Below are positions 5,009 through 62,620 of a stretch of 64,000 nucleotides of DNA, piece after piece. The translations under genes and the position numbers were made by a program. The notes under the pieces were generated by a model that was given only the letters and a program-made list of their open reading frames with translations, ran no database searches and was not told the origin of the DNA. Position 1 is the stretch's first letter; the number at the start of each line of letters is the position of its first letter. The DNA comes from an uncultured Aminicenantes bacterium (GTDB lineage: Bacteria > Acidobacteriota > Aminicenantia > UBA2199): contig CBDAFS010000055.1 of assembly GCA_965195285.1 (NCBI GenBank), positions 32,001 to 96,000 on the forward strand. Reading direction: 5' to 3'.

Positions 5009-5743
5009 TCAAATTTCCATAAACACTTCTGATGCCGGACAATGAATCACCAGATCGGCCATCTTATCCAGAGGAGTGGCATCGATATTGATAATCAACA
5101 ACAAAGACCCGTTCTGCTTGGCCAGCAGGGGGATCTGAGCGGCCGGATTAACCACCAGAGAGCTGCCTACTACCAGAAAGGTGCCGCATTCACGGGCTGC
5201 CTGCCAGGCCGTATTCAAAGCCTCCTGGGGCAGGGGCTCCCCGAACAGGACCACATCCGGTTTCAGCAGTCCCCCGCAGCTACAGCGGGGCGGCAGAGTC
5301 TTTTCCAATCCTTGGTAGATTTCATCCATATGATAGCCCCGGTTGCATTCCAGACAAATAATCCGGCGTGTATTGCCATGCAGCTCGCAAACCTTTCTCT
5401 GGCCGGCTTCCTGGTGAAGACCGTCAATGTTCTGGGTGATCACCTGAAACAGCGTGCCCTGCTGTTCAAGCTTCACCATTGCTTCGTGGGCCTTATTGGG
5501 TCGCGCCGCCTTGATTACCGGATAGCGCTCCTCTTTGAAAAAACGCCAGTAATAAGAGGGATCCTGGTTAAAATACTGAATATCGGCATACTTGGACGGG
5601 TCATACTTGCTCCAGAGCCCCCCGGCCCCCCGGTAGGTTGGGATTCCGCTTTCAGCCGATAAACCTGCCCCGCTGAAGACAACCAGATTGTGAGAATTCC
5701 GGATCAGGTCCTTCATCTGCTTTGTTTTTTCCGACATGACCAA
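5009..5743 (-). CDS. cobB: NAD-dependent deacylase, sirtuin family (start may be ATG 5737)
   Basis: GAGLSAESGIPTYRG, TQNIDGLH, HGN, CxxC...CxC, KPDVVLFGE, GSSL. Confidence 0.9.
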   Translation of the reverse strand: MVMSEKTKQMKDLIRNSHNLVVFSGAGLSAESGIPTYRGAGGLWSKYDPSKYADIQYFNQDPSYYWRFFKEERYPVIKAARPNKAHEAMVKLEQQGTLFQVITQNIDGLHQEAGQRKVCELHGNTRRIICLECNRGYHMDEIYQGLEKTLPPRCSCGGLLKPDVVLFGEPLPQEALNTAWQAARECGTFLVVGSSLVVNPAAQIPLLAKQNGSLLLIINIDATPLDKMADLVIHCPASEVFMEI

Positions 5744-28611: not shown

Positions 28612-29628
28612 TCAATCATGTTTGAAAATCTTTATGGCCGACACCTTGAAAGTAGCCCACAGCTGGTCTCCCAGTTTTATTTGCATTTCTTCAAATGACT
28701 TTCGGGTGATTTCAATAATCAGCACCACACCGATATTCAGAACCACCTCAACCAACGTAGACCGGTTGAAAATATGTTCAACCCGTCCGTGAAATGAATT
28801 CCGGGCAGACGACAACAATGGTTTTCTGGAAATAATAATATCATCGGACCGGATGGCAATATAGGCAAACCCTGCACTCTGAAGTGGAACATGAAAGGCA
28901 ATCCCCTCCAATTGCAGGAAGTAGTCCCTGACCACACCGCTAAAAACATTGCGGTAACCTAGAAAATCAGCAACATCCTTGGTTTTCGGATGGTTGAAAA
29001 TCTCATCCGGTTTGCCGCACTGGACAATCCTGCCATCCATTAAAATAGCCAATCGATCAGCCAGGGACAGGGCCTCTTCAAAATCATGGGTGACATGGAT
29101 AAAGGTGCGGGAAGGATCCTGATGCAGGTTCATAAATAGTTTCCGGGTTTTCAAGCGCAGATTCCGATCCAGTGAAGAGGTGGGCTCATCGAAAAGGTAA
29201 ACATCAGGTGAAATCGCCATGGCCCTGGCAATGGCCACCCTCTGCTTTTCTCCACCTGAGAGATGGTCAGTCCAGCGATCCAGTAAATGGCCAATCTCCA
29301 ATTGACCGGCCACCTCTTTTACGGTCAGGATTATTTTTTGTTTGGCCTGCTTTCTGACCTTCAACCCGTAGGCAATGTTATCAAACACATTCAAATGGGG
29401 AAAAAGCCAGTAATCCTGATAGATAAAACCGATTTTTTTCCGGTCAACCCCGGTTACAATCCCGGAATCCGGTTTGATCAGACCGGCGATTAGTTCCAGG
29501 ATGAGTGTTTTTCCGGCTCCACTCGGACCCAGAATCACAAAAAACTCCCCGGGCCAGACTTGAAAATCAAGATCGAACAGAGCAAAATCCTGATATCTTT
29601 TATTTATATTTTTTAATTCAATATTCAT
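28612..29628 (-). CDS. wtpC: Tungstate/molybdate ABC transporter ATPase with TOBE domain
   Basis: GPSGAGKT, LSGGE, DEP, SSARN..G, TFK. Confidence 0.85.
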   Translation of the reverse strand: MNIELKNINKRYQDFALFDLDFQVWPGEFFVILGPSGAGKTLILELIAGLIKPDSGIVTGVDRKKIGFIYQDYWLFPHLNVFDNIAYGLKVRKQAKQKIILTVKEVAGQLEIGHLLDRWTDHLSGGEKQRVAIARAMAISPDVYLFDEPTSSLDRNLRLKTRKLFMNLHQDPSRTFIHVTHDFEEALSLADRLAILMDGRIVQCGKPDEIFNHPKTKDVADFLGYRNVFSGVVRDYFLQLEGIAFHVPLQSAGFAYIAIRSDDIIISRKPLLSSARNSFHGRVEHIFNRSTLVEVVLNIGVVLIIEITRKSFEEMQIKLGDQLWATFKVSAIKIFKHD

Positions 29629-31612: not shown

Positions 31613-32149
31613 ATGAATAACCAACTCAAACATACCACTGTGCTCTGTGTTAAACACAAGGGAAAGATTGTCATCGGTGCTGACGGACAGGTTTCCTTTC
31701 AGAATACGGTTTTAAAACACAAAGCCAAAAAAGTACGCCGGCTCTACAATAACGAGGTACTGGCCGGTTTTGCCGGCTCCACCTCAGATGCCTTTTCCCT
31801 GTTTCAACGATTCGAAGGCAAGCTAGAAGAATACAACGGAAATTTATCCCGGGCCGCCATCGAACTCTCCAAAGAATGGAGGACGGATAAGATACTTAGA
31901 AGACTGGAAGCCATGCTCATTGTAGCCAACAACGATAATCTGTACATCCTTTCCGGTTCCGGAGACGTGATTGAACCGGATGAAGATGTGCTTGCCATTG
32001 GAAGCGGAGGCCCCTATGCCCAGGCAGCGGCACTGGCTCTGAAACGGTTCTCGAACCTGGGTGCCCGGGAACTGGTCGAAAAATCACTGGAAATTGCCTC
32101 AAACATTTGCATCTATACCAACGAGAAATTTACTATTGAGGAACTTTAA
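31613..32149 (+). CDS. hslV: ATP-dependent protease subunit HslV
   Basis: TTVL catalytic Thr, DGQV, GFAGS, AIGSGG, CIYTN. Confidence 0.97.
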
Positions 32150-38956: not shown

Positions 38957-39625
38957 TTACCGATCCTCTATTGGTTTTTCCCCCTGAATAAGGCTTTCAA
39001 TGAATCCAAAGGTCCCGGCAAATACCTTTTTTAACCGCTCTACATCCGAAAAAGGCCGGATCCCATTCCCGGTAACCCGGTCCGATAACACCACCAGGGC
39101 CACAAATGGCTTTTCCAGAAATAATCTTAGTGGAAATAACTCCATTTCCACCGCATCGATTCCCCGACTTTCCTGACTTTTCAACCAGCTCCGGGTTTCA
39201 CGCTGCAGGATATCCACACTGACCGCGCTGACCCTTTCAAACTGATCATTTTCCAAATCTTTAAGCCCAAAGTCCCGGCGAGTGGAAAAATGGGTAAAAA
39301 CCGAGCTGGCATGGATCCGGGTGACATTGAGGGCGCAGGGATGATCCCATCTTGGGTTAATGCTGCCAGCAGTTCCCAGGAAAAAGATCTCCTTTTGTTT
39401 CACCCCGGCAATGAATTCCAGCAGAGTGAGCAGGAAAGGATACCCCAGGAAACCAGTCACCAGGGCATAGGCCTGAAACACCAGCACGTCACTTCCCAGC
39501 AGGTGAACGATCTTTCTGGCCCGGATTTGTAACTTCTTAAAAACGGCCCGGTCGTAAAAGTGGGGAATCAATACCAGGGTATCGGGGACATTGATTTTTT
39601 TTGGGGAAAACAGTATGTCTGTCAT
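38957..39625 (-). CDS. Nucleoside phosphorylase-like protein (divergent)
   Basis: FLGTAGS, AVEME and VLSD resemble the PNP/UDP fold. Confidence 0.55.
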   Translation of the reverse strand: MTDILFSPKKINVPDTLVLIPHFYDRAVFKKLQIRARKIVHLLGSDVLVFQAYALVTGFLGYPFLLTLLEFIAGVKQKEIFFLGTAGSINPRWDHPCALNVTRIHASSVFTHFSTRRDFGLKDLENDQFERVSAVSVDILQRETRSWLKSQESRGIDAVEMELFPLRLFLEKPFVALVVLSDRVTGNGIRPFSDVERLKKVFAGTFGFIESLIQGEKPIEDR

Positions 39626-39720
39626 TGAAAAGAGTGCAAATTATACAACACTTTTCCAATCTTGCAAAATGGCTGCTGCCAATAAGGCTAACAAAGGGCT
39701 ATTGGAAACATTTGATTTCT

Positions 39721-39773
39721 TTATTCTTTAGACCTGACCCCGGTTATTCTTTAGACCTGACCCCGGTTATTCT
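39721..39773. repeat. Tandem 23-bp duplication with a TGACCCC end
   Basis: ttattctttagacctgaccccgg x2 plus a partial third copy. Confidence 0.9.
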
Positions 39774-39802
39774 CGGTTATGCGGTTACCGGGTACGGCCG
39801 AT

Positions 39803-40909
39803 TTAGAATGGTTTCAGACGGTAAATACAGTTCCACTTTTGATATACGGAGAAGTATAGCTCTCTTGTTGTGGGGAAATAGATAACCGACCAGGTGGTGC
39901 CTTTCTGGGAGACATCCTGCAGGATTTTCAGACCGGCCTTCCAGTCTATAGCTCCTTTTGATTTTTCGAGAGTTTCGGATATGCTTCGATAACGCCAGCA
40001 TTTTTCTCTCAGCTTGGCATCCGGAACATTATGAATGGACTTATTTGTGAGCACTTGACTGGTTTTATCAGAATATATTTTTCTCCATTGATCCTGACTG
40101 TATTCCAGAATCACAGACTGTCCGGAGGCATCGACAACCAGCAAATGTGTGTTCAAGGAATTGATATCCAAATCAAAGGGGATGAACTTTTCAACCAGGG
40201 TCACCGCTTCTTCGATGTTCTTGGTTTGATCAAGAATTTTACGTACTAAGAAAGTAACGAACACAAGTTCCTTATCGCTCTTTGGTTTGTGTGTGGTTTG
40301 CTTTACACCGGCTACGGCCACGGCCAGGCCGTGTTCATTGATCCCGTCCATTGCATAAAAAGGAGCCAACAACAGCTTTTTTCCCAGTTCACTCGATTTG
40401 AGTTGCTCCAGATCGATGTTTAACGGAAAACCCATATCAATGGCTCTGGAAAAGGAAATCGAAGTGTATCCCCCGGGGGAATGATAGAGACTGATGATTA
40501 TGGAACCCACATTTTGATTATCCCAGTTTCTACCCATAATGACAGAATTCTCAGTGGTTGTGGAGAACACACTGCAATAGCGCCAGGTTTGATCGATCAT
40601 CGGATTGTCAATTGCATGTTGGTTTTCTTTTTTAAAGACATCCTCACGATCGCCAACGTGAGTCATTAGATAAAGGCCTCCTGTAGAATATGTCTCGCTT
40701 ATCTCTCTTACTTTTACCAGGCTCTGCAGGGTTCGGGATACATCCGAATCCGAATCAGGAGGCTGTTCGAACTTCAAATCAATAATTTCAGCCTGAGTTC
40801 CACCGAATCCGGCAATCACCAGAGATGAAATAATAGTCAGAAAGATGACCCGTTTCTTTTGTTTTTTAACACACACCATAAAAATCTCCTTACTTTTTTT
40901 TAGGTTCAT
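39803..40909 (-). CDS. Secreted Ntn-hydrolase (C45 peptidase / choloylglycine hydrolase-like); start uncertain
   Basis: CSVF nucleophile, GRNWD, DGINEHGL, TN, TTWSVIY; hydrophobic N-terminal segment. Confidence 0.78.
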   Translation of the reverse strand: MNLKKSKEIFMVCVKKQKKRVIFLTIISSLVIAGFGGTQAEIIDLKFEQPPDSDSDVSRTLQSLVKVREISETYSTGGLYLMTHVGDREDVFKKENQHAIDNPMIDQTWRYCSVFSTTTENSVIMGRNWDNQNVGSIIISLYHSPGGYTSISFSRAIDMGFPLNIDLEQLKSSELGKKLLLAPFYAMDGINEHGLAVAVAGVKQTTHKPKSDKELVFVTFLVRKILDQTKNIEEAVTLVEKFIPFDLDINSLNTHLLVVDASGQSVILEYSQDQWRKIYSDKTSQVLTNKSIHNVPDAKLREKCWRYRSISETLEKSKGAIDWKAGLKILQDVSQKGTTWSVIYFPTTRELYFSVYQKWNCIYRLKPF

Positions 40910-40996
40910 GTCAATATATAGAAACGGAATGAAACATGGAAAGGTTGCATTTTTATTCAGTACAATAATTGGGTCACGTCAACCGGTTTTTTATTT

Positions 40997-42145
40997 TTAT
41001 TTAATTCTGTTGTTCACGACCTTTAATTTGAGGGTGCTGTTTATACCTTTTCTGGGGTTTTTTAAGAAGTTTGTTACTGTTATGGGAATAGTCAGATCAT
41101 AAACACCAGGTTCTGCATCCTTCTTAAATCTAAGAGTCAGAATATCAGTGGTCTGAGGCAGAATGTTGACCTTTTCAGTCAGGGTATAGGCATCTGAACT
41201 GTTATTGGTATTTATCATTATCGGAATATCTGAATTATTGGTAATCCGTATCAATGCTTTGCCTGATTCATTGCTGGATAATTCTTTAGTAATAAGATCG
41301 ATACAACTCATAAATAGAGGTTTTAACCACTCCTCCCTGCCCATAATAAAATGTCGGTCATAAATTAAGGTCCGCCGGTTCTCAAGCGCATCCCTGACAC
41401 CATCCAGGGTCCATTCTTTGGAAAAAACCAGGGTATAGGGCCTGTGCTGGCCTCGTAGAGGTTCAAATTTAAAATCTATTCTGGTATGAATATCAGAATT
41501 CCCAAAGAGGGTCAAGTTTTTTTCCAGAGCCCAGTCAAATACCTCGGGATAGTACTCATCCCAATTTACCACTTCAATCCCCTTTAACCATCCCTTGTTG
41601 AGCAGCGTGGTATGCTCCTTGTACCAGCGCACCTCCTTATCCTCTTTTAACTGAGAACCCCAGCCCGGATGATTCCATATGATAAAAGCTCCCTGCTTTA
41701 TTGCCAGCTCAATCGCTTTAAATGGATTCTTTTCCGTCATGGGTGTTTCATCTTGGATAAAAAGAGCGTTAAAATGTCCGGGGGGCATATCCCGGGTAAT
41801 CTCAGTGGCTTTGATTAAGAGTATTCCCAGTTCCTGTGCACGGGGAAGAGCCAACTCATAAGCCCGGTTGTATTTGATTGGAACATCCTCCCTGGAGGAT
41901 TTATAATCAGTTTCAACATGATCGGTTATGGCAATCACATCCAGTCCTTCTCTATAGGCTTCTTCAACCCGTATGGTGGGCCAGACATCACCATCCGAAA
42001 AGAGTGTATGAATATGAAAATCCCCGATCAGGGTTTTATACCCTTTAATATCGGGAATTCTGATCTCTCTCCGAATCTGAGTGTACAAAAATCCGGGGAT
42101 TAACAGCACGATCAGCAGGACAATCGGAATGATATTTTTCTTCAT
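40997..42145 (-). CDS. Secreted PHP-domain phosphoesterase
   Basis: Signal peptide; DFHIHT, ITDH, GHFNALF, NHP, NSDIH; AAGGAG RBS. Confidence 0.85.
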   Translation of the reverse strand: MKKNIIPIVLLIVLLIPGFLYTQIRREIRIPDIKGYKTLIGDFHIHTLFSDGDVWPTIRVEEAYREGLDVIAITDHVETDYKSSREDVPIKYNRAYELALPRAQELGILLIKATEITRDMPPGHFNALFIQDETPMTEKNPFKAIELAIKQGAFIIWNHPGWGSQLKEDKEVRWYKEHTTLLNKGWLKGIEVVNWDEYYPEVFDWALEKNLTLFGNSDIHTRIDFKFEPLRGQHRPYTLVFSKEWTLDGVRDALENRRTLIYDRHFIMGREEWLKPLFMSCIDLITKELSSNESGKALIRITNNSDIPIMINTNNSSDAYTLTEKVNILPQTTDILTLRFKKDAEPGVYDLTIPITVTNFLKNPRKGINSTLKLKVVNNRIK

Positions 42146-42320
42146 TTTATCTCCTTCTTGGCCCTTAATTATAACTTATTTTTTTTTATTGTGTAATAAA
42201 AATACCATAGATAAAATACCTGGGAACAAGTTTACATTAAAGCTTAAGGGAAAAAGTCGGTGCCTGGGGAGGAGCCGGGGAACTTTTTTCAAATTTAGAA
42301 AACGGTTGGAATGAAAGGAC

Positions 42321-42433
42321 TGGGCGATGCAGGATTTACAAGTGTGACTCATCGTACACTTGCCTGCGGCTCCTTCCTTTCAGTCAGTCGTGCTGATTCG
42401 CTTAAGGCGAATCATGGGAACCTGCAACTTCTA
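42321..42433 (-). pseudogene. tRNA-Val 3' fragment (att-like) split by an 80-nt insertion in the T-loop
   Basis: tgggcgatgcaggattt [42338-42417] gaacctgcaacttcta matches tRNA 48881-48913 with one mismatch. Confidence 0.8.
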
Positions 42434-42477
42434 ATGGACATCACCCCTTTTCACCCCCTTTTTTTTATTTCAGTTTT

Positions 42478-42852
42478 TTATTTGTCTTTAAGCTCTCTGT
42501 CTTTTACATTAAAGATTATTGATAATATTAATGCGGTTAAAAATAGTAGAAGAGTAATCATATCAACCATTCTGGCATTTACATTCCAGTCAGTAATTGA
42601 GTCAATGAGAAATTTAATATAAGATAAAGGCATATCATATAGTTCCAGTTTCACCCTTACTTTCCAGTGCCATTCGGTACTGGGACAAAATCCAAATCCA
42701 TACCAAATACCCAGAATAAACCAGGAAAAGGCAGTCAACAAAAGTAGTATGAGATTTAATTTTCTGGTTTTTTTCCATATCCACCCAAAAAGGTTAAAAA
42801 AAATGATGCCTGTATGAAAAACAAAAAAGAATTTATCTAGAAACAGGTACAA
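42478..42852 (-). CDS. Small membrane protein, DUF2784-like
   Basis: H..IIFFNLFGW, GFCPSTEWHW, three hydrophobic helices; GGAGGA RBS with TTG start. Confidence 0.7.
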   Translation of the reverse strand: MYLFLDKFFFVFHTGIIFFNLFGWIWKKTRKLNLILLLLTAFSWFILGIWYGFGFCPSTEWHWKVRVKLELYDMPLSYIKFLIDSITDWNVNARMVDMITLLLFLTALILSIIFNVKDRELKDK

Positions 42853-42971
42853 ACTATATCCTCCATCATTTATATTTATATTATAGTAGGTTTTATTCTA
42901 AAATTTTTTAATAATCAAGAAATATTCAATATTGAGTTTATTTTTATAAAAATGTAAAAATGTAAAAAAAT

Positions 42972-43074
42972 GGGGACGTTGCTTGACAGTGTGACAGTAA
43001 GTTACAAAAAAGTCACTTCTTGTTGGAACTTTTGTGGGAAAGATATGTAAGAAAAATGGTCGATGTCCCTATTT
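42972..43074. repeat. REPIN/MITE-like element GGGGAC...GTCCCT
   Basis: ggggacgttgcttgac matches the reverse complement of the MITE end 47556-47571 at 15/16; the right end tgtccctatttt recurs in the 47308-47350 repeat. Confidence 0.6.
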
Positions 43075-43099
43075 TTTAAAACTGTTGATGATAAAGGAC

Positions 43100-43141
43100 T
43101 GGGCGATGCAGGATTTGAACCTGCGACTTCTACCGTGTGAA
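43100..43141 (-). repeat. att-like direct repeat: exact 42-bp copy of the tRNA-Val 3' half
   Basis: Identical to 48881-48922 and ends in the anticodon loop. Confidence 0.92.
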
Positions 43142-43147
43142 ACAAAG

Positions 43148-43317
43148 GGGGACGGTGCCTTACTTTATTACTTTTTGGATGACTGTAAAGGACATGCCCT
43201 ACTTGTGTGTACATCTTCAAACTATAAATTTACAGATTTGCATGTCCTATCCCGCTTGGGGTACACCGTTACCGTTTTCCTATCGAACGGAAAAATCATG
43301 TCAAGAAGTCAAGCACC
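43148..43317. mobile_element. MITE/REPIN-like element copy 1 (right TIR lacks 6 nt)
   Basis: Near-identical direct repeat of 47397-47571. Confidence 0.8.
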
Positions 43318-43571
43318 AATCAATATAAAATGGGGTTTAAAGGTCTTCTTACTAGTGACATAAAAAAATATTCTATAAAAAAGAAGAGAATTGTTTTTTT
43401 CGCTAATACTATCGGAACACCAAACCGTACCTTTCAGTTCAATGGGATCCTCTGGTCGATTATATACTTTTTTGGTTGCCATTCTAAAAAAAAATAGTTT
43501 GCATAAAAAATTTCCTTTTGTTATATATGATATGAAAGGCCTGTTGTGAATTGACATTATTGAGTATTTCA

Positions 43572-46500
43572 ATGATAGGAAAAACAATTTCTCATTATAA
43601 GATCCTCGAAAAAATCGGTGAAGGGGGGATGGGAGTAGTCTTTAAGGCTGAGGATACCAAACTTGATCGTCTTGTTGCACTCAAATTTCTTCCCAGGCAA
43701 TACAGTATAAACAAAGAAGAAAAACAGAGGTTCATACATGAGGCAAAAGCTGCGGCTGCATTAGATCACACTAATATCTGTGCAATCTATGAAATTGATG
43801 AAACTGAAGACGGGCAGATGTTCATTGTCATGGCCTACTATGATGGGGAAACCTTAAAAGATAAAATTACCTCTGGCCCCTTGCCCATCGCCGAGGCTAT
43901 TAATATCACAATCCAGGTTACTGAAGGATTAAATAAAGCACATACAAAAAATATTATTCACAGAGATATAAAAGCAGCCAACATCATTATTACCAGTGAT
44001 GGAATTGCCAAAATAGTAGACTTCGGTCTGGCCAAACTGAAAGGTCAAACCAAGCTGACCAAGGAGGGATCTACCCTGGGAACTGTTTCATATATGTCAC
44101 CGGAACAGGTCCTGGGAGAAGAGGTTAACCATCAGACTGACGTATGGTCATTAGGAGTAGTGCTTTATGAAATGACTATAGGCCAGTTTCCTTTTAAAGG
44201 AGAACATGAGCAGGCAGTAATGTACTCTATTATAAATGAAGAGCCGGAACAGATTGCTGGGATCAGGCCTGAAGTACCTGAAAAACTGGAACAGATTATA
44301 TTTAAGGCTCTTGAAAAAGAACAAAATAATCGGTACCAGAACGTAAAAGAACTATTTACAGACTTACGATCCTTGGCAAAAGGTGTTGATTCTGCAATCT
44401 CGATAGAAGAACAATTCCAACCGCCCCCGTTTCTTGAGGCAGAGGATCATGAGGATATTGAGCCTCCCGTCTTTGTAGCCCGGGAGCAAGAACTTGAGAA
44501 GCTTAATAAATTCCTCGACCGGACAATTGAAGGAAAAGGTCAGGTTGTTTTTGTGAAAGGAGAAGCCGGTAGCGGAAAGACCGCCCTGGTGCATGAATTT
44601 GCCCGGCGTGCTCAAGAGATTCATTCTGATCTTATAGTTGCCACCGGGAAATGTAATGCCACTACCGGGGTTGTTGACCCCTATTTACCTTTTTTAGAGA
44701 TAATGAATATGCTCACTGGTGATGTAAAAGAGAAGTGGATAACTGGAAAAATAACCAGGGAGCATGTCATCGGGTTATGGAATCTTCTTCCTCTTTCTAT
44801 TCAGGCACTGGTGGATAATGGGCCTGACCTGATAAATATATTTGTGCAAGGAGGTAATCTGCTGAAACGCCTAGAAGTTTTTTCACCAGGCAGGACATCC
44901 TGGAAAGTCAAGTTGAAGAAACTTGTGGAACATAAGGCAGCCCTTCCCCCGGACCCAAACCTGCAACAAAGCTACCTTTTAAGGCAATTCACCAGAGTGC
45001 TCATCGCACTTTCACGAGAGCAGCCATTGCTTTTAATACTTGACGACCTGCACTGGGCAGATTCAGGTTCCATTAACCTGCTTCTTAAGCTGGGCCAGAG
45101 TGTAGAGGGCAGCCGTATCCTGTTAACAGGAACTTACCGTGGAGCAGAAGTAGCCATGGGAAGGGAAAACAAACCACATCCCCTTGAGCCTTTAATTAAT
45201 GAATTCAAACGGAACTTCGGTGAATTTGAAATTGACCTGGGAAAAACAGAAGACAGGGAATTCCTAAACTCATTTCTTGATACAGAACCAAATGAATTAA
45301 GCCAAAATTTTAAGGATACTCTCTACAAGCAAACCAAAGGGCACTCCCTCTTTACCGTTGAATTGCTGCGGAGCATGCAGGAAAGTGAAATGCTGGTCAA
45401 GGACAAAGATGGAAACTGGATTGAAGGGCCGGAGTTAAACTGGGAGACAATGCCCGCACGGGTGGATGCAGTGATTGGAGAACGTATCAACCGGCTTTCT
45501 GATACGCTTCGTGAAATATTGACCATTGCTTGTGTGGAGGGTGAAGAATTTACAGCGGAAGTGGTTGCCAGGTTAAAGGATACTGAAGTCCGGGAATTGG
45601 TCAGACTTTTAAGCAGTGACCTGGACAGGCACCATCACCTGGTGAGCAGCCAGGGTATCCGCCGGATTCAAAAATTGCGCTTATCCTTGTACCGTTTCCG
45701 GCACATCCTCTTTCAGAGGTATCTTTATAACAGTCTTGATGAGACTGAGCAGGTTTTTCTTCACGAAGATGTGGGAAAAATGTTAGAGACGCTTTATGGA
45801 GAGCGAGCAGAAAAGATATCTGTTCAATTGGCTTATCACTTTCAAAAAGCGGGAATAACTGAAAAGGCGATAGAGTATCTTAAAAAAGCAGGAGATAGAT
45901 CCTTGGGGTTGTATGCCAATGAGGAGGCGATTTTGCATTTTACTAAAGGTCTGGAGCTACTTAAAACTTTACCGGATTCACCAGAGCGTACCCAGTTGGA
46001 ACTTACTTTACAACTTGCCTTAACTCCTGCATTACAATTCACCAGGGGCTTAGGGGCTGCAGAACTGGAACAGACACTCGCCCGGGCTAAGGAGCTTTGC
46101 CAGCAGTTAGGGGAAACGCCTCAACTTTTAATAGCACTTGTTCAACTTTCATTTTTTCATGCTGTAAGAGGAGATTACCGTAAGGCGCTAGAGTATGGAA
46201 AACAGGTAAAAAGAATGACAGAGCAAGGTGATGATCCAGTTTTTACTGCTTTTTCTAATGTAATACACGTGTGGCCATTGCTTAATGTGGCAGATTTAAA
46301 TCAATCTCTAACCTGCGCACAGCAGGTAATTTCATTCTATGATCCTAAGAAACATGGATCTTTGTTATTCACGACCGGGATTGATATGGCAATAATCTCT
46401 TACGGATTCGGAGCCTGGGGTTTTTGGATTCAAGGCCATCCGGATCGAGCCCGGGAGTGGTGTAAAAAAGCAATGGCTCTGGCCCGGGAGCTGGCTGAAC

Positions 46501-47159
46501 CTTATAATTTAGCTTTTGCCTATCTTCAAGCCTCTGAAACCTACCTGTTTCTTAAGCAAGCTCAGATGGTTAAGAAGTATGCCGAGAAGATGGCTCCAAT
46601 CGCCATAGAAAAAGGCTTTGGGTATTTGGAGGCTCATGTAATTTTTTATCGGGGCTGGCTACAAACTTTAAAGGGTCACACTAAAGAAGGTATAGGACAA
46701 ATGAATCATGGACTAAGAATGATGCTGGCTACAAATACCGAAACATGTTTCACCCGTCTTTACGCCTGGATGGCCAGTGTGTGTCTGGAAGTGGGTCAGA
46801 TAGAGGATGGACTGACTGCAATAACAAAGGCTATGGAGGTAATGCGAAATAAAGATGAGATTTACATTGAAGCTGAGCTGTATCGTTTAAAGGGGGAGTT
46901 GTTGTTGATGAAGGCGCAGGGGAAGGATGAGGCGGAGGTTAGGGTCTGTTTTCAGAAGGCCATCAATGTTGCCCGACATCAGAAGGCTAAGTCCTGGGAG
47001 CTTCGAGCTGTGATGAGCCTAAGCCGTTTGTTACAGAAAAAGGGAAAGAAAGCAGAAGCGCGAAAAATTCTGGCCGAGATATACGGCTGGTTTACTGAAG
47101 GCTTTGATACCCTGGATCTCAAAGAGGCCAAGGCGCTTCTTGAGGATTTGTCAGGTTAA
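43572..47159 (+). CDS. Ser/Thr kinase - P-loop (STAND-like) ATPase - TPR protein
   Basis: GEGGMG, VALK, HRDIKAAN, DFG, SPE; FVARE, Walker A GEAGSGKT, LDDLHWAD; helical repeat C-terminus ending WFTEGFDT.DL. Confidence 0.9.
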   Translation: MIGKTISHYKILEKIGEGGMGVVFKAEDTKLDRLVALKFLPRQYSINKEEKQRFIHEAKAAAALDHTNICAIYEIDETEDGQMFIVMAYYDGETLKDKITSGPLPIAEAINITIQVTEGLNKAHTKNIIHRDIKAANIIITSDGIAKIVDFGLAKLKGQTKLTKEGSTLGTVSYMSPEQVLGEEVNHQTDVWSLGVVLYEMTIGQFPFKGEHEQAVMYSIINEEPEQIAGIRPEVPEKLEQIIFKALEKEQNNRYQNVKELFTDLRSLAKGVDSAISIEEQFQPPPFLEAEDHEDIEPPVFVAREQELEKLNKFLDRTIEGKGQVVFVKGEAGSGKTALVHEFARRAQEIHSDLIVATGKCNATTGVVDPYLPFLEIMNMLTGDVKEKWITGKITREHVIGLWNLLPLSIQALVDNGPDLINIFVQGGNLLKRLEVFSPGRTSWKVKLKKLVEHKAALPPDPNLQQSYLLRQFTRVLIALSREQPLLLILDDLHWADSGSINLLLKLGQSVEGSRILLTGTYRGAEVAMGRENKPHPLEPLINEFKRNFGEFEIDLGKTEDREFLNSFLDTEPNELSQNFKDTLYKQTKGHSLFTVELLRSMQESEMLVKDKDGNWIEGPELNWETMPARVDAVIGERINRLSDTLREILTIACVEGEEFTAEVVARLKDTEVRELVRLLSSDLDRHHHLVSSQGIRRIQKLRLSLYRFRHILFQRYLYNSLDETEQVFLHEDVGKMLETLYGERAEKISVQLAYHFQKAGITEKAIEYLKKAGDRSLGLYANEEAILHFTKGLELLKTLPDSPERTQLELTLQLALTPALQFTRGLGAAELEQTLARAKELCQQLGETPQLLIALVQLSFFHAVRGDYRKALEYGKQVKRMTEQGDDPVFTAFSNVIHVWPLLNVADLNQSLTCAQQVISFYDPKKHGSLLFTTGIDMAIISYGFGAWGFWIQGHPDRAREWCKKAMALARELAEPYNLAFAYLQASETYLFLKQAQMVKKYAEKMAPIAIEKGFGYLEAHVIFYRGWLQTLKGHTKEGIGQMNHGLRMMLATNTETCFTRLYAWMASVCLEVGQIEDGLTAITKAMEVMRNKDEIYIEAELYRLKGELLLMKAQGKDEAEVRVCFQKAINVARHQKAKSWELRAVMSLSRLLQKKGKKAEARKILAEIYGWFTEGFDTLDLKEAKALLEDLSG

Positions 47160-47282
47160 AACAAGCCAAAAATATTTGGAATTTTGATCGAATATTCTCA
47201 AGAACATGGGGTCTAAAGAATAAAGATTTGTCAATAATGTTTTTCATCCCAATACTCAAGGTATTAACCTGCATCATCTAAA

Positions 47283-47350
47283 AAAATAGGAACACATCAC
47301 TTTTATTTAATGGGATGTGTCCCTATTTTAATGGGATGTGTCCCTATTTT
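47283..47350. repeat. Inverted repeat plus 21-bp tandem duplication
   Basis: aaaataggaacacatc / gatgtgtccctatttt; taatgggatgtgtccctattt x2 (47308-47349). Confidence 0.85.
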
Positions 47351-47396
47351 AGGGGAATTTCTCTAAATAGAATAAAATGGCGGGAACGGCATGAAT

Positions 47397-47571
47397 GGGG
47401 ACGGTGCCTTACTTTATTACTTTTTGGATGACTGTAAAGGACATGCCCCACTTGTGTGTATATCTTCAAACTAAAAATTTACAGATTTGCATGTCTTATC
47501 CCGCTTGGGGACACCGTCACCGTTTTCCTATCAAACGGAAAAATTATGTCGAGAAGTCAAGCACCGTCCCC
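47397..47571. mobile_element. MITE/REPIN-like element copy 2 (175 bp, intact TIRs)
   Basis: Perfect 11-bp TIR ggggacggtgc/gcaccgtcccc; internal stems gacatgc/gcatgtc and ccgttt/aaacgg. Confidence 0.82.
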
Positions 47572-47683
47572 AATCACCCCTTTTTGTTAGTACCGTCATT
47601 CCTTCTTTTCTACAATGGTAGAATAATTTTAATTTTTCCGACATAATTGAACATAGAATTTCCGTTAAAAAAGGAGAAATGTG

Positions 47684-48757
47684 ATGAAATCAATAAAAAT
47701 ACATTTTTATCAATGGGTTCTTATCAGTTTATTATTCTTTACTTTATCCGGGCTTTCAGCCTCCAACTTTTCTGAAGTTGAGATTTCCCCTGATACACCC
47801 GCTGATGTAAGACTGGCAATCGAAGGATTGTTTTCTACTGAAGCCATCACCCGGGTAAAATCGGCCACTAGATTAGGAAATATTGGAGCCCGGGCAATCC
47901 CAGCAATCCCATTTCTCATTGAAATGCTAAATGATACCGTAGAAGTCCGGTTGCAATCCAGTTCTCAACCAACCTCCCCTGCCAGTGAAGCAAATAAAGC
48001 ACTAATAAAAATTGGTAAACCTGCAGTTAAACCACTTATTGCAGCATTAAAACACGATGACTGGGTTATTCGATCATGGGCTGCTGAAATACTGGGAAAT
48101 TTAAAAGATCACCAGGCGTCACAACCATTGATTACAAGCATGAGTGATAAGAATTCCATAGTAAGAAAATTGGCAGCAGAGGCATTGGGGAAAATTGATC
48201 CAAAAGCGCTTATTAATACTTTAAAGCACAAACAAGCTCAAGTTCGAGCCGGTGCGGCCTGGGCATTAGGAGAGCTAAAAATTCAGTCTTCAGTAGAACA
48301 CTTAATCAAATCCCTTGATGATAAGAAAACTCTAGTTCGAGGCTATGTCATTGAGGCCTTGGGTAAAATAAAAAGTACCAGAGCTACAATTCCTTTACTT
48401 AAATTTCTGAAGGATAAGAAGAGAATCATTCGTGAAAAGACTGGGATGGCCCTGGGAAAGATAGAAGATCCCCGGGCTGTTGTAGCCCTGATTGCTGCAT
48501 TGAAGCATAAAGATTGGGCAACCAGATGGAAGGCTGCCCTGGCTACCGGGATGATAAAAGATAAGCGCGGTGTTGAGCCTCTTATTATTGCTTTAAACGA
48601 TAAAAAAGCCGAAGTACGTTTTACGGCAGCCTGGGCTCTGGGAGAAATCAAAGATTCCCGGGCAGTGAAATATTTGATTCCTCTACTGGAAGATGGATAC
48701 GTAACTGTGCGGCAGAAAGCTAAAGAAGCTTTGAAGAAAATAACTGGAAAAGATTAA
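47684..48757 (+). CDS. Secreted HEAT/PBS-lyase repeat protein
   Basis: Signal peptide; repeated VR..AA.ALG.I.D..AV..LI..L.D units; AAGGAG RBS. Confidence 0.88.
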   Translation: MKSIKIHFYQWVLISLLFFTLSGLSASNFSEVEISPDTPADVRLAIEGLFSTEAITRVKSATRLGNIGARAIPAIPFLIEMLNDTVEVRLQSSSQPTSPASEANKALIKIGKPAVKPLIAALKHDDWVIRSWAAEILGNLKDHQASQPLITSMSDKNSIVRKLAAEALGKIDPKALINTLKHKQAQVRAGAAWALGELKIQSSVEHLIKSLDDKKTLVRGYVIEALGKIKSTRATIPLLKFLKDKKRIIREKTGMALGKIEDPRAVVALIAALKHKDWATRWKAALATGMIKDKRGVEPLIIALNDKKAEVRFTAAWALGEIKDSRAVKYLIPLLEDGYVTVRQKAKEALKKITGKD

Positions 48758-48764
48758 CACATAA

Positions 48765-48790
48765 ATAAGGGGTCAGATAAGGGGTCAAAT
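48765..48790. repeat. Tandem ATAAGGGGTCA duplication
   Basis: ataaggggtcag ataaggggtcaa directly after the HEAT gene stop. Confidence 0.75.
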
Positions 48791-48808
48791 CTGTGTTTGA
48801 CGTTTGGT

Positions 48809-48850
48809 AAAAAAAGCCGAAGCCAAGTGTTGAAGCTGGGGACTTTTTTC
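48809..48850 (-). terminator. Probable intrinsic terminator downstream of tRNA-Val
   Basis: Minus strand: imperfect stem aaaaaagtcc...ggc followed by T7; a related sequence sits at the same offset from the tRNA fragment at 42251-42290. Confidence 0.5.
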
Positions 48851-48880
48851 AAATTACGGAAACTGTTGATAATAAAGGAA

Positions 48881-48953
48881 TGGGCGATGCAGGATTTGAA
48901 CCTGCGACTTCTACCGTGTGAAGGTAGCACTCTAGCCACTGAGTTAATCGCCC
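48881..48953 (-). tRNA. tRNA-Val(CAC), CCA not encoded
   Basis: GGGCGAT acceptor stem, anticodon arm CTACC-TTCACAC-GGTAG, T arm GCAGG-TTCAAAT-CCTGC; 73 nt. Confidence 0.96.
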
Positions 48954-61642: not shown

Positions 61643-62620
61643 ATGAGAAATAAAACCCGTTTCAAAATGTTGCTTTTTCTTTTGATCGGCCTGTTGATAT
61701 TCGATATCATCGGCTATATCATCATCGAGCAGGTGGGAGTGCTGGATGCGCTATACATGACCATTATCAGTATTACCACGGTGGGATTTAATGAAGTCTT
61801 TCCCCTCAGCCTCCCAGGCAGAATTTTCACCATGGTGGTGATTGTGACCGGAATCGGATTTTTTTTCTATATCGCCATGTCAGTTGCCGAAAACACTATC
61901 GAGGAGAGAGTCAGAAAAATTTTAGGGAGAAGAAAGATGAGGACTTTGGCAAAAATGAAAGATCACATGATCATTGCCGGTTTCGGCCGGATGGGAAAAC
62001 TGGTTGCCTGCGACCTCCAGTCAAAGAACATCAAATTTGTCATCATTGAAAATAATCCGGAACGATTTGCCATGGCGGATGAACTGGGATATCACGTTCT
62101 CCTGGCTGATGCCACTTCGGAAGAGACCCTTGAACTGACCGGTATAAAGAATGCAAAAACATACATTGCCCTGCTGAGTTCGGATGCCCGGAACCTGTTC
62201 ACGGTTCTGACCGCCAAGGAATTGAATCCCTCACTCTTTATCATTGCCCGGTGTTTTGAACCCCAGAACGAGAAAAAACTGACCAAATCAGGGGCCCACC
62301 GGGTGGTAACCCCCCATCAATTATCTTCCCGCCGAATTGTCAATACCGTACTGAAACCCAATGTGGTCAACCTGATTGACCTGGTTTCCCAGTCACAGGA
62401 CCTGTCCCTTTCACTGGAAGAAATCACCATTGGAGCGGAATCCGAATTCATTGGCAAGACCATCCGGAATTCCGGGATTAAGGAGCGGTTCAATGCCATG
62501 GTGGTAGCGGTCAAGCGGGCTGAAAAACTGTTTTTCAATCCGGAAGCCAATCTGGTGCTGGCCCCCTATGATATCCTGATCCTGATCGGAGAGAAGGAAA
62601 AAATAACCCGCATCTCCTGA
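61643..62620 (+). CDS. Potassium channel with RCK domain (MthK/Kch-like)
   Basis: TTVGF filter, GFGRMG, RCK-C domain. Confidence 0.88.
   Translation: MRNKTRFKMLLFLLIGLLIFDIIGYIIIEQVGVLDALYMTIISITTVGFNEVFPLSLPGRIFTMVVIVTGIGFFFYIAMSVAENTIEERVRKILGRRKMRTLAKMKDHMIIAGFGRMGKLVACDLQSKNIKFVIIENNPERFAMADELGYHVLLADATSEETLELTGIKNAKTYIALLSSDARNLFTVLTAKELNPSLFIIARCFEPQNEKKLTKSGAHRVVTPHQLSSRRIVNTVLKPNVVNLIDLVSQSQDLSLSLEEITIGAESEFIGKTIRNSGIKERFNAMVVAVKRAEKLFFNPEANLVLAPYDILILIGEKEKITRIS

Follow-up and report, generated by a model that had tools for sequence, protein, structure and literature searches.

The DNA analysed here, a stretch of 64,000 nt referred to below as the window, comes from an uncultured Aminicenantes bacterium (GCA_965195285.1, a metagenome assembly of 62 contigs) and covers positions 32,001 to 96,000 of contig CBDAFS010000055.1 (C55, 125.7 kb). 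Between a PNP_UDP_1-like gene and the tRNA-Val(cac) gene it carries a region of 9.25 kb with five genes, in the spacers of which lie short repeats tipped by GGGG(A/T)C. A first-pass annotation had read this region as an array of gene cassettes bracketed by such ends, an integron-like capture platform mobilised in trans, and had proposed it as an undescribed system. We describe here the families of terminal inverted repeats (TIRs) to which these ends belong, the tyrosine transposase genes that they frame elsewhere in the genome, and the tRNA-Val island that they occupy. In the list of features that follows, positions are those of the window, and a short tandem duplication across the junction between flank and repeat tip is called a stutter; REP stands for repetitive extragenic palindrome and MITE for miniature inverted-repeat transposable element.

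38957..39625, minus: PNP_UDP_1-like gene, the conserved left flank (weak Pfam match; tblastn synteny in genomes G001, G002, G004 and G007)
39702..39783, minus: solo right-hand end of family A (GGGGTCAGGTCTAAAGAATAAAG), tip facing the Ntn-hydrolase gene
39803..40909, minus: Ntn-hydrolase family gene (AAT/CBAH; Pfam)
40997..42145, minus: gene with PHP and Ig-like domains (PHP 25.2 bits, below the cut-off of 26.4; DUF5001 24 bits, above the cut-off of 23)
42251..42440, no strand given: decayed downstream flank of tRNA-Val with the tRNA 3' half (74% identity to 48811-48909)
42440..42458, minus: two tip-only motifs (atcacccc, ttcaccccc), resembling the GGGGTGA tips of TIR families H and J
42478..42852, minus: DUF2784 gene (Pfam, 57.4 bits)
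42949..42995, plus: solo left-hand end of family C (GGGGACGTTGCTTGAC..., from 42972), preceded by an 8-nt stutter, tip facing the DUF2784 gene
43079..43141, no strand given: att-like direct repeat (97% identity to 48860-48922)
43145..43322, plus: TIR doublet 1, MITE-like; left arm of family B (GGGGACGGTGCCTTAC), right arm lacking its 6-nt tip
43551..47159, plus: Ser/Thr kinase-STAND ATPase-TPR gene, 1202 aa (Pfam)
47204..47257, plus: solo left-hand end of family A, tip shorter by 5 nt (GGGGTCTAAAG...), facing the kinase gene
47285..47348, no strand given: three hairpin REPs (AATAGGGACACATCCCATTTA family), including a 21-nt tandem pair
47394..47576, plus: TIR doublet 2, both tips intact, 94% identical to doublet 1; right tip accgtcccc (47571) facing the HEAT gene
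47681..48757, plus: HEAT-repeat protein gene (Pfam HEAT_2, 167 bits)
48764..48801, plus: solo left-hand end of family D (GGGGTCAAATCTGTGTTTGAC, from 48781) with a 12-nt stutter, tip facing the HEAT gene
48881..48953, minus: tRNA-Val(cac), the right-hand anchor and sole tRNA of the window (ARAGORN; Rfam tRNA, 70.4 bits)

The motifs from which the cassette array had been built are where they were reported. The doubled ctgacccc (39734-39764) lies inside a 23-nt tandem (39721-39766) of the first family A end, which has about 40 nt of interior at its left and also carries a 10-nt stutter (39764-39783). The motif tcacccc occurs twice at 42440-42458, ggggacgttgcttgac at 42972, ggggtctaaag at 47208, accgtcccc at 47571, and ggggtcag/a at 48769 and 48781. 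What had been called a MITE end is part of a 173-nt repeat pair (43145-43317 and 47394-47570), a doublet present in the genome in these two copies only, and the tandem duplications of 23, 10, 21 and 12 nt are all real. The motif gggtcacgtc at 40971 is a member of no repeat family and lies in a spacer (40910-40996) that matches only itself genome-wide. The region encodes no recombinase, as had been noted: its five genes and eight small open reading frames (ORFs) are free of recombinase and transposase domains.

The claim that the motifs cluster in this region also holds. By itself the 6-mer GGGGWC is no more frequent in the window than expected (40 occurrences on both strands against 44), yet the region, with 1608 of the 5277 intergenic bases, holds 10 of the 11 intergenic GGGGWC sites; these calls rest on a crude ORF mask, and an eleventh regional site, at 43148, is masked by a spurious ORF. 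When ends are scored as full repeats of 21-24 nt with at most three mismatches, all six matches of the window fall within 39.7-48.8 kb, and no other 10 kb of the 3.28-Mb genome is so densely set with ends (six, where 0.30 would be expected; Poisson 7e-7 per 10-kb interval). The genome total is 97 ends after removal of duplicates, 89 of them intergenic by a crude coding mask. Gene-less repeats are dispersed as doublets of 66-200 bp and in clusters with as many as 6 ends in 10 kb; neighbouring ends from different families are common, and several families pile up in single spacers. The dense litter at this locus could reflect the tolerance of dispensable DNA for insertions, or a preference for inserting beside existing ends. 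A general enrichment of ends near tRNA genes was considered and dropped as too weak (14 of about 97 ends within 3 kb of one of the 47 tRNAs, zones estimated to make up some 9% of the genome).

Repeat families and their transposase genes

Five of the six spacers of the region match repeats on other contigs (BLAST against the genome). At the sequence level the ends, previously treated as one motif class, fall into four distinct TIR families and the hairpin REP family. Family A (GGGGTCAGGTCTAAAGAATAAAG) has 22 copies at up to three mismatches, with the core exact in 20, and is found in the window at 39719, 39742 and 47204. Family B (GGGGACGGTGCCTTAC...) has 12 copies and supplies the left arm of each 173-nt doublet (43145 and 47394), while families C (GGGGACGTTGCTTGAC..., 7 copies) and D (GGGGTCAAATCTGTG..., 4 copies) have one site each in the window, at 42972 and 48781. 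These copy numbers are lower bounds, because the family A master copy abuts the end of its contig, and the start of several contigs falls within a family A end. The shortened family A tip at 47204-47214, where GGGGTCTAAAG replaces GGGGTCAGGTCTAAAG, is a loss of 5 nt between the two GGTC repeats of the tip; contigs of a near-identical strain from another study (X23) retain the full tip in other family A copies.

For each of the four TIR families a master copy is found on another contig; it measures about 1 kb, has inverted ends and holds one gene of 302-326 aa:

family A: C47:23077-24135
family B: C49:48790-49770
family C: C12:67754-68742
family D: C31:40758-41793

Y1/RAYT genes flanked by the same ends had been named beforehand as something to look for, and these four units provide them. 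Y1_Tnp (PF01797) is recognised in three of the masters (C47, C49 and C31, with 54.1, 31.4 and 51.3 bits; cut-off 23), and Bac_DnaA_C exceeds its cut-off of 31.5 bits in those of families A and D (32.5 and 42.6 bits). The genome has 17 matches to Y1_Tnp, of which 16 are above the Pfam cut-off; inverted GGGG-type ends flank at least 15 of these 17 loci on both sides, and one more has such an end on one side only. The full-length copies align on the HUH motif (NHYHL) and on the conserved tyrosine (Y(I/V)xxNP). Tips and proteins vary together: GGGTCA tips accompany all seven proteins that begin with M[AS]RP[LI]RIE, and GGGG(T)GACG or GGGGACG tips all eight that begin with MR[RH]xR, a co-variation that would fit with each enzyme recognising its own ends. 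A search of the family A transposase against PDB sequences gave no match at E 0.01. The families are shared with congeners at the DNA level: G001 has B and C, G002 has A and D, and G003 has A.

Elements of this kind are in print, and the system cannot be called undescribed. In the sections drawn on here, Di Nocera 2013 (PMC3733652) named TIRtrons and TIRYTs, gave the consensus GGGGWSAS, reported the repeats as singles, dimers and groups, and named an Acidobacteria group of TIRYTs; Quentin 2018 (PMC6006769), in the corresponding sections, equated the TIRYTs of Di Nocera with TnpA-Y1 subclass 2.1, which has a C-terminal Bac_DnaA_C/helix-turn-helix (HTH) part, and found that their flanking inverted repeats mostly share GGGG[AT][CG]A[CG]. 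Of the tips seen here, GGGGTCAG fits GGGGWSAS exactly, and GGGGTCAA and GGGGACGG are each off at one position. The GGGG(A/T)C ends of the region are the outer tips of 21-24-nt TIRs of four families, beside a hairpin REP family, and the Y1/HUH tyrosine transposases of the 1-kb masters, some with a DnaA-C HTH tail, presumably move these repeats in trans. The earlier suggestion of REP/REPIN-like ends served by a RAYT/IS200-type HUH enzyme is in this respect supported in kind by the 17 Y1_Tnp loci and their end-framed majority.

Three other loci deserve mention. At C8:11297-12045 a shorter Y1 gene (224 aa), with the top Pfam score (71 bits), is framed by hairpin repeats AATAGGGACACATCCCATTTA, which account for two of the 13 genome copies of that family; it looks like a more classical RAYT/REP pair coexisting with the TIRYT families. 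At C49:51986-54207 (L026, 1787-4008) the 2.2 kb between two inward-facing family B ends hold genes for an aldo/keto reductase and a DUF364 protein and no transposase; the ends may delimit a unit with cargo, or may be solo ends that face each other by chance. At C53:37423-42803 (L004) two family A doublets of 200 bp, in direct orientation, stand 5.2 kb from each other on either side of a PIG-L deacetylase gene and two genes of unknown family; none of the three genes is found in the three congeners at the DNA level.

Orientation of the ends and the tRNA-Val island

In the master copies the sequence 5'-GGGG... reads into the element. The five solo ends of the region lie at 39741 (minus), 42447/42458 (minus), 42972 (plus), 47204 (plus) and 48781 (plus), and each has its tip 9-120 nt from a gene end and its interior directed away from that gene. 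CCCC on the left and GGGG on the right of a gene thus mean that the elements occupy the spacers and that the genes are outside; the five genes are not element cargo, because they are on the outer side of every end. That the genes are bracketed by the motifs is literally true, but in the orientation opposite to the one that a cargo-carrying element needs. The ends flanking any one gene, moreover, come from different families, and elsewhere in the genome the same ends adjoin both accessory genes and housekeeping genes (pyruvate kinase, AsnA, tRNA U5-methyltransferase, dihydroorotate dehydrogenase). Excision between elements would be expected to leave a tip-to-tip junction as its footprint, and a pattern allowing up to 15 nt between tips found none genome-wide. 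The sole composite-like unit, the kinase gene between its two family B doublets (43145-47576), shows no target-site duplication. Two other repeat clusters, compared by DNA search with the three congeners, yielded no empty site, the congeners being too fragmented or divergent.

In two genomes of other genera of the same family (G004 and G007), the PNP-like gene and tRNA-Val are 42-44 nt apart. In the congener G001 the gap is 2.7 kb, holds ORFs of 463 and 148 aa and two decayed copies of the tRNA 3' part, and contains no GGGG[AT]C[AG] end. In G002 at least 3.5 kb upstream of the tRNA carries other genes, with three TIRYT-type ends within 350 bp. In the genome under study (G000) the gap of 9.25 kb holds three genes on the minus and two on the plus strand, with a GC content (0.31-0.44) under that of the flanking genes (0.46-0.49) and near the genome mean of 0.42. 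The PHP, HEAT and orthologous kinase genes are absent at the DNA level from G001, G002 and G003, and the sole congener DNA match of the Ntn-hydrolase gene (73% identity) is on another contig of G001. Kinase-domain paralogues of the kinase occur several times in the genome, and a metagenome scan with the kinase C-terminus found no close strain, the best of 80 loci being 49% identical.

The island also carries the traces of its tRNA. Positions 32-73 of tRNA-Val, that is, its 3' 42 nt from the anticodon loop to the 3' end, are repeated together with 21 nt of downstream flank (43079-43141 against 48860-48922; 63 nt, 97%), and an older copy of flank and tRNA 3' half (42251-42440, 74%) aligns with copies in G001, C32 and C43. 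Genomic islands linked to tRNA genes insert at the tRNA 3' end and leave direct repeats of the tRNA 3' part, and integrase-less remnants flanked by att sites are cis-mobilisable elements. A repeat start in the anticodon loop, at tRNA position 32, is reportedly a classical crossover sublocation of tyrosine integrases. The stacked remnants beside the live tRNA, in G000 and in G001, are what successive integrations leave. The segment 39.67-48.88 kb was thus most likely inserted between the PNP-like gene and tRNA-Val(cac) by repeated integration at the tRNA 3' end, by recombination or by both, and its intergenic spacers have been colonised by non-autonomous TIRYT/TIRtron remnants in the form of solo ends and MITE-like doublets. 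For the proposed capture platform, the duplicated tRNA-Val 3' ends point instead to ordinary integration at a tRNA site, and the G001 locus varies in content with no such ends; both count against that proposal, together with the direction of the tips and the mixture of families around each gene.

The older tRNA copy is itself interrupted, by an 80-nt hairpin element inserted in its T-loop (42338-42417). Other copies are found in G001 (L015, 8700-8985), at C32:25790-26031 and 29163-29404, and in C43 at about 62270-62350. The hairpin (GATTCRCC...GYGAATC) shows compensatory changes in two pairs, and it sits in the T-loops of fragments resembling the 3' part of two tRNA types. The Rfam scan of the region gave only the tRNA above the gathering score, and on the C32 and C43 copies Rfam gave no match beyond tRNA; the element could be a small T-loop-targeting insertion or a piece of structured RNA. 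In C32:24000-31000 (L117) the tRNA-like piece and hairpin element are contained in a 242-nt direct repeat (1790-2031 and 5163-5404, 88%), which frames a single ORF of 984 aa that matches the kinase-domain DNA of the window kinase. A kinase-TPR paralogue of 987 aa lies between family A ends on C15. With the doublet-kinase-doublet unit of the window, three kinase genes are framed by small repeats.

Junction stutter and rival readings

A tandem duplication of 7-23 nt across the junction of flank and tip is present at 21 of 96 ends genome-wide. In comparison, one is found at 26 of 3000 positions drawn at random, and at 30 of 3000 drawn at random from intergenic DNA. Seventeen of the 21 duplicated runs extend 1-9 nt into the repeat, with nt 7 as the commonest end point; the stutter unit is thus a piece of flank together with the tip. 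Stutters occur at master copies too. The X23 contigs, for which 22 single-letter differences from the window are listed over 13 kb, have three indels of at least 10 nt: 10 nt are missing at 39764, one 21-nt unit is missing at 47306, and 15 nt are extra at 48776. All three are at stutters, so that three of the four duplications of the first-pass annotation are polymorphic between near-identical strains, and in the comparison of strain contigs the TIR repeats are polymorphic only at stutters. The X23 contigs break at repeats, and the order of the modules is not independently proven by them; the contig sets X2, X3 and X7 give no cover for the Ntn-hydrolase and HEAT parts, which is not evidence of absence. 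The short tandem duplications of the region are cases of a fast-changing stutter that recurs at such ends genome-wide; slippage at a protein-bound or nicked site, or faulty rejoining by the transposase, may plausibly cause it.

Joints between 47257 and 39707/39708 in X23 and X2 do not mark island circles; they come from contigs with complete family A doublets of other loci, which map on the two solo halves.

Taken together, the data make it very probable that the ends are TIRYT/TIRtron remnants littering the spacers of an integrase-less, species-specific tRNA-Val island, and that the genes between them are not cargo. Several observations weigh against this view. An X7 contig of 756 nt (about 98% identical) joins 46887-47174, through 68 unaligned letters, to 42456-42852, which puts the 3' end of the kinase gene beside the 3' end of the DUF2784 gene and means that gene order differs, or that 42456-47174 exists as a tandem copy or circle. 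The breakpoint at 42456 lies within the ttcaccccc tip motif, and the match of an X2 contig begins at 42459, so that in both sets homology starts at the tip-only motifs (42456-42459). The record density of ends here, and their presence at the G002 locus, may mean that passive accumulation is not the whole story. On the side of the transposases, the sections of PMC6006769 and PMC3733652 drawn on here do not demonstrate TIRYT transposition, Bac_DnaA_C was undetected in the family B master in the Pfam scan of the A, B and D masters, and matches to the NCBIfam model REP_Tyr_transpos (NF047646) score 69.5-71 bits, under its cut-off of 80. On the side of the island, PF00589 (integrase) has six matches in the genome and none on the 125.7-kb contig, so that the route of integration is read from the att-like repeats only; and these extend 21 nt beyond the tRNA end, longer than a minimal core.

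The X7 joint would fit recombination between dispersed repeats, reordered re-integration of att-flanked modules, or action of a transposase. The last of these leads to the strongest rival, in which the DNA from the right end of one element to the left end of the next is excised in circular form and enters again at a different tip, so that the ends would act as cassette borders after all; its premise is the symmetry of HUH chemistry. We regard such shuffling as unlikely. The tips of all five solo ends do lie close to a gene end, the joint of 47174 to 42456 is what a circle, a tandem copy or a strain with another gene order would show, with one side in a tip motif, the three congeners have three gene sets at the locus, with such ends in that of G002, and the end density is the highest of the genome. 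The ends around each gene are, however, of different families, each with its own transposase; 47174 falls 30 nt short of the family A tip, abutted tips are absent from the genome, and the G001 locus has varied without a single such end. Housekeeping genes are flanked in the same way, the DUF2784 paralogue on C56 shares no flanks with the window copy, and homologous recombination between dispersed repeats gives the same reordering.

A second rival, which we hold to be less probable still, derives the island from homologous recombination alone, acting between strains by way of the conserved flanks, the tRNA-like copies being local duplications and not att sites. It would account for repeats that take in 21-70 nt of downstream flank beyond the tRNA, for the lack of an integrase, for a gene GC near the genome mean, and for the X23 and G003 contigs that break around the island. 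Against it stand the start of the repeat within the anticodon loop (tRNA position 32) and the several remnants stacked beside the live tRNA in both G000 and G001. Finally, an integron-like array with attC-type sites, or a motif due to chance, is very improbable, for although single genes are separated by short repeats and the bare 6-mer is no commoner across the window than chance predicts, the contig has no IntI or PF00589 match, the genes are on both strands, the 21-24-nt repeats belong to families with Y1 master copies, Rfam gives only the tRNA above its gathering score, and 10 of 11 intergenic sites are clustered.

Remnants of TIRYT/TIRtron elements in the spacers of the island, as we favour, have a practical consequence for annotation: short GGGG-tipped repeats around accessory genes in such genomes should be taken as transposon-end litter and not as cassette borders. 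Since receiving their name in 2013, TIRYTs have seen little study, and this genome, with 16-17 paralogues, their own repeat families and a clean split of protein clades by tip, is a rich natural test bed. Between two near-identical strains the stutter changes faster than point mutations accumulate; it may mark the cut site of the enzyme and would then give a direct handle for biochemistry. One might speculate, at rather long odds, that the TIRYT tips are live sites of cleavage and rejoining, which yield the tandem stutter and occasionally the excision and re-insertion of gene-sized DNA between elements. If this were true, the end-packed spacers would let single genes be shuffled within a tRNA island, the reordering of the kinase and DUF2784 genes being one such event.

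Comparison with known systems

Like tRNA-linked islands in general, the locus begins where a tRNA gene ends at its 3' side, contains direct copies of the 3' part of that tRNA, has stacked remnants and varies in content among congeners; it differs in lacking integrase, conjugation and phage genes and in the very small size of its modules, of one or two genes. The likeness to integrons is limited to single genes separated by short repeats, whereas IntI is lacking, the repeats are of transposon-end families, the genes are on both strands, and no attC-type structure common to the repeats is seen.

REPIN-RAYT systems and BIMEs, as presented in the sections used here of Bertels & Rainey 2011 (PMC3116915) and Ton-Hoang 2012 (PMC3333891), are similar in having one tyrosine transposase per repeat family, inverted repeats framing the gene, doublets, an intergenic location, clustering, and families common to congeners. 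Families A-C differ from them in being without the REP hairpin, no GTAG tag is seen, and the proteins are longer, some with an HTH tail; the 224-aa gene of C8 is nearer to a classical RAYT.

The closest likeness is to TIRYTs and TIRtrons. The Y1/HUH proteins measure about 300 aa, those of the A and D masters have an HTH tail of the Bac_DnaA_C type, and the genes are framed by TIRs and not by hairpin REPs; the tips fit or nearly fit GGGGWSAS, and gene-less copies are found as singles, dimers and groups. The junction stutter sets the present elements apart, as the words "duplication" and "tandem" are absent from the main texts of PMC3733652 and PMC6006769, and it is possibly an unreported feature. 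Two further differences lie in the sheer number of these elements, 16-17 paralogues in one genome of 3.3 Mb, each with its own repeat family, and in the piling of several of these families into single spacers.

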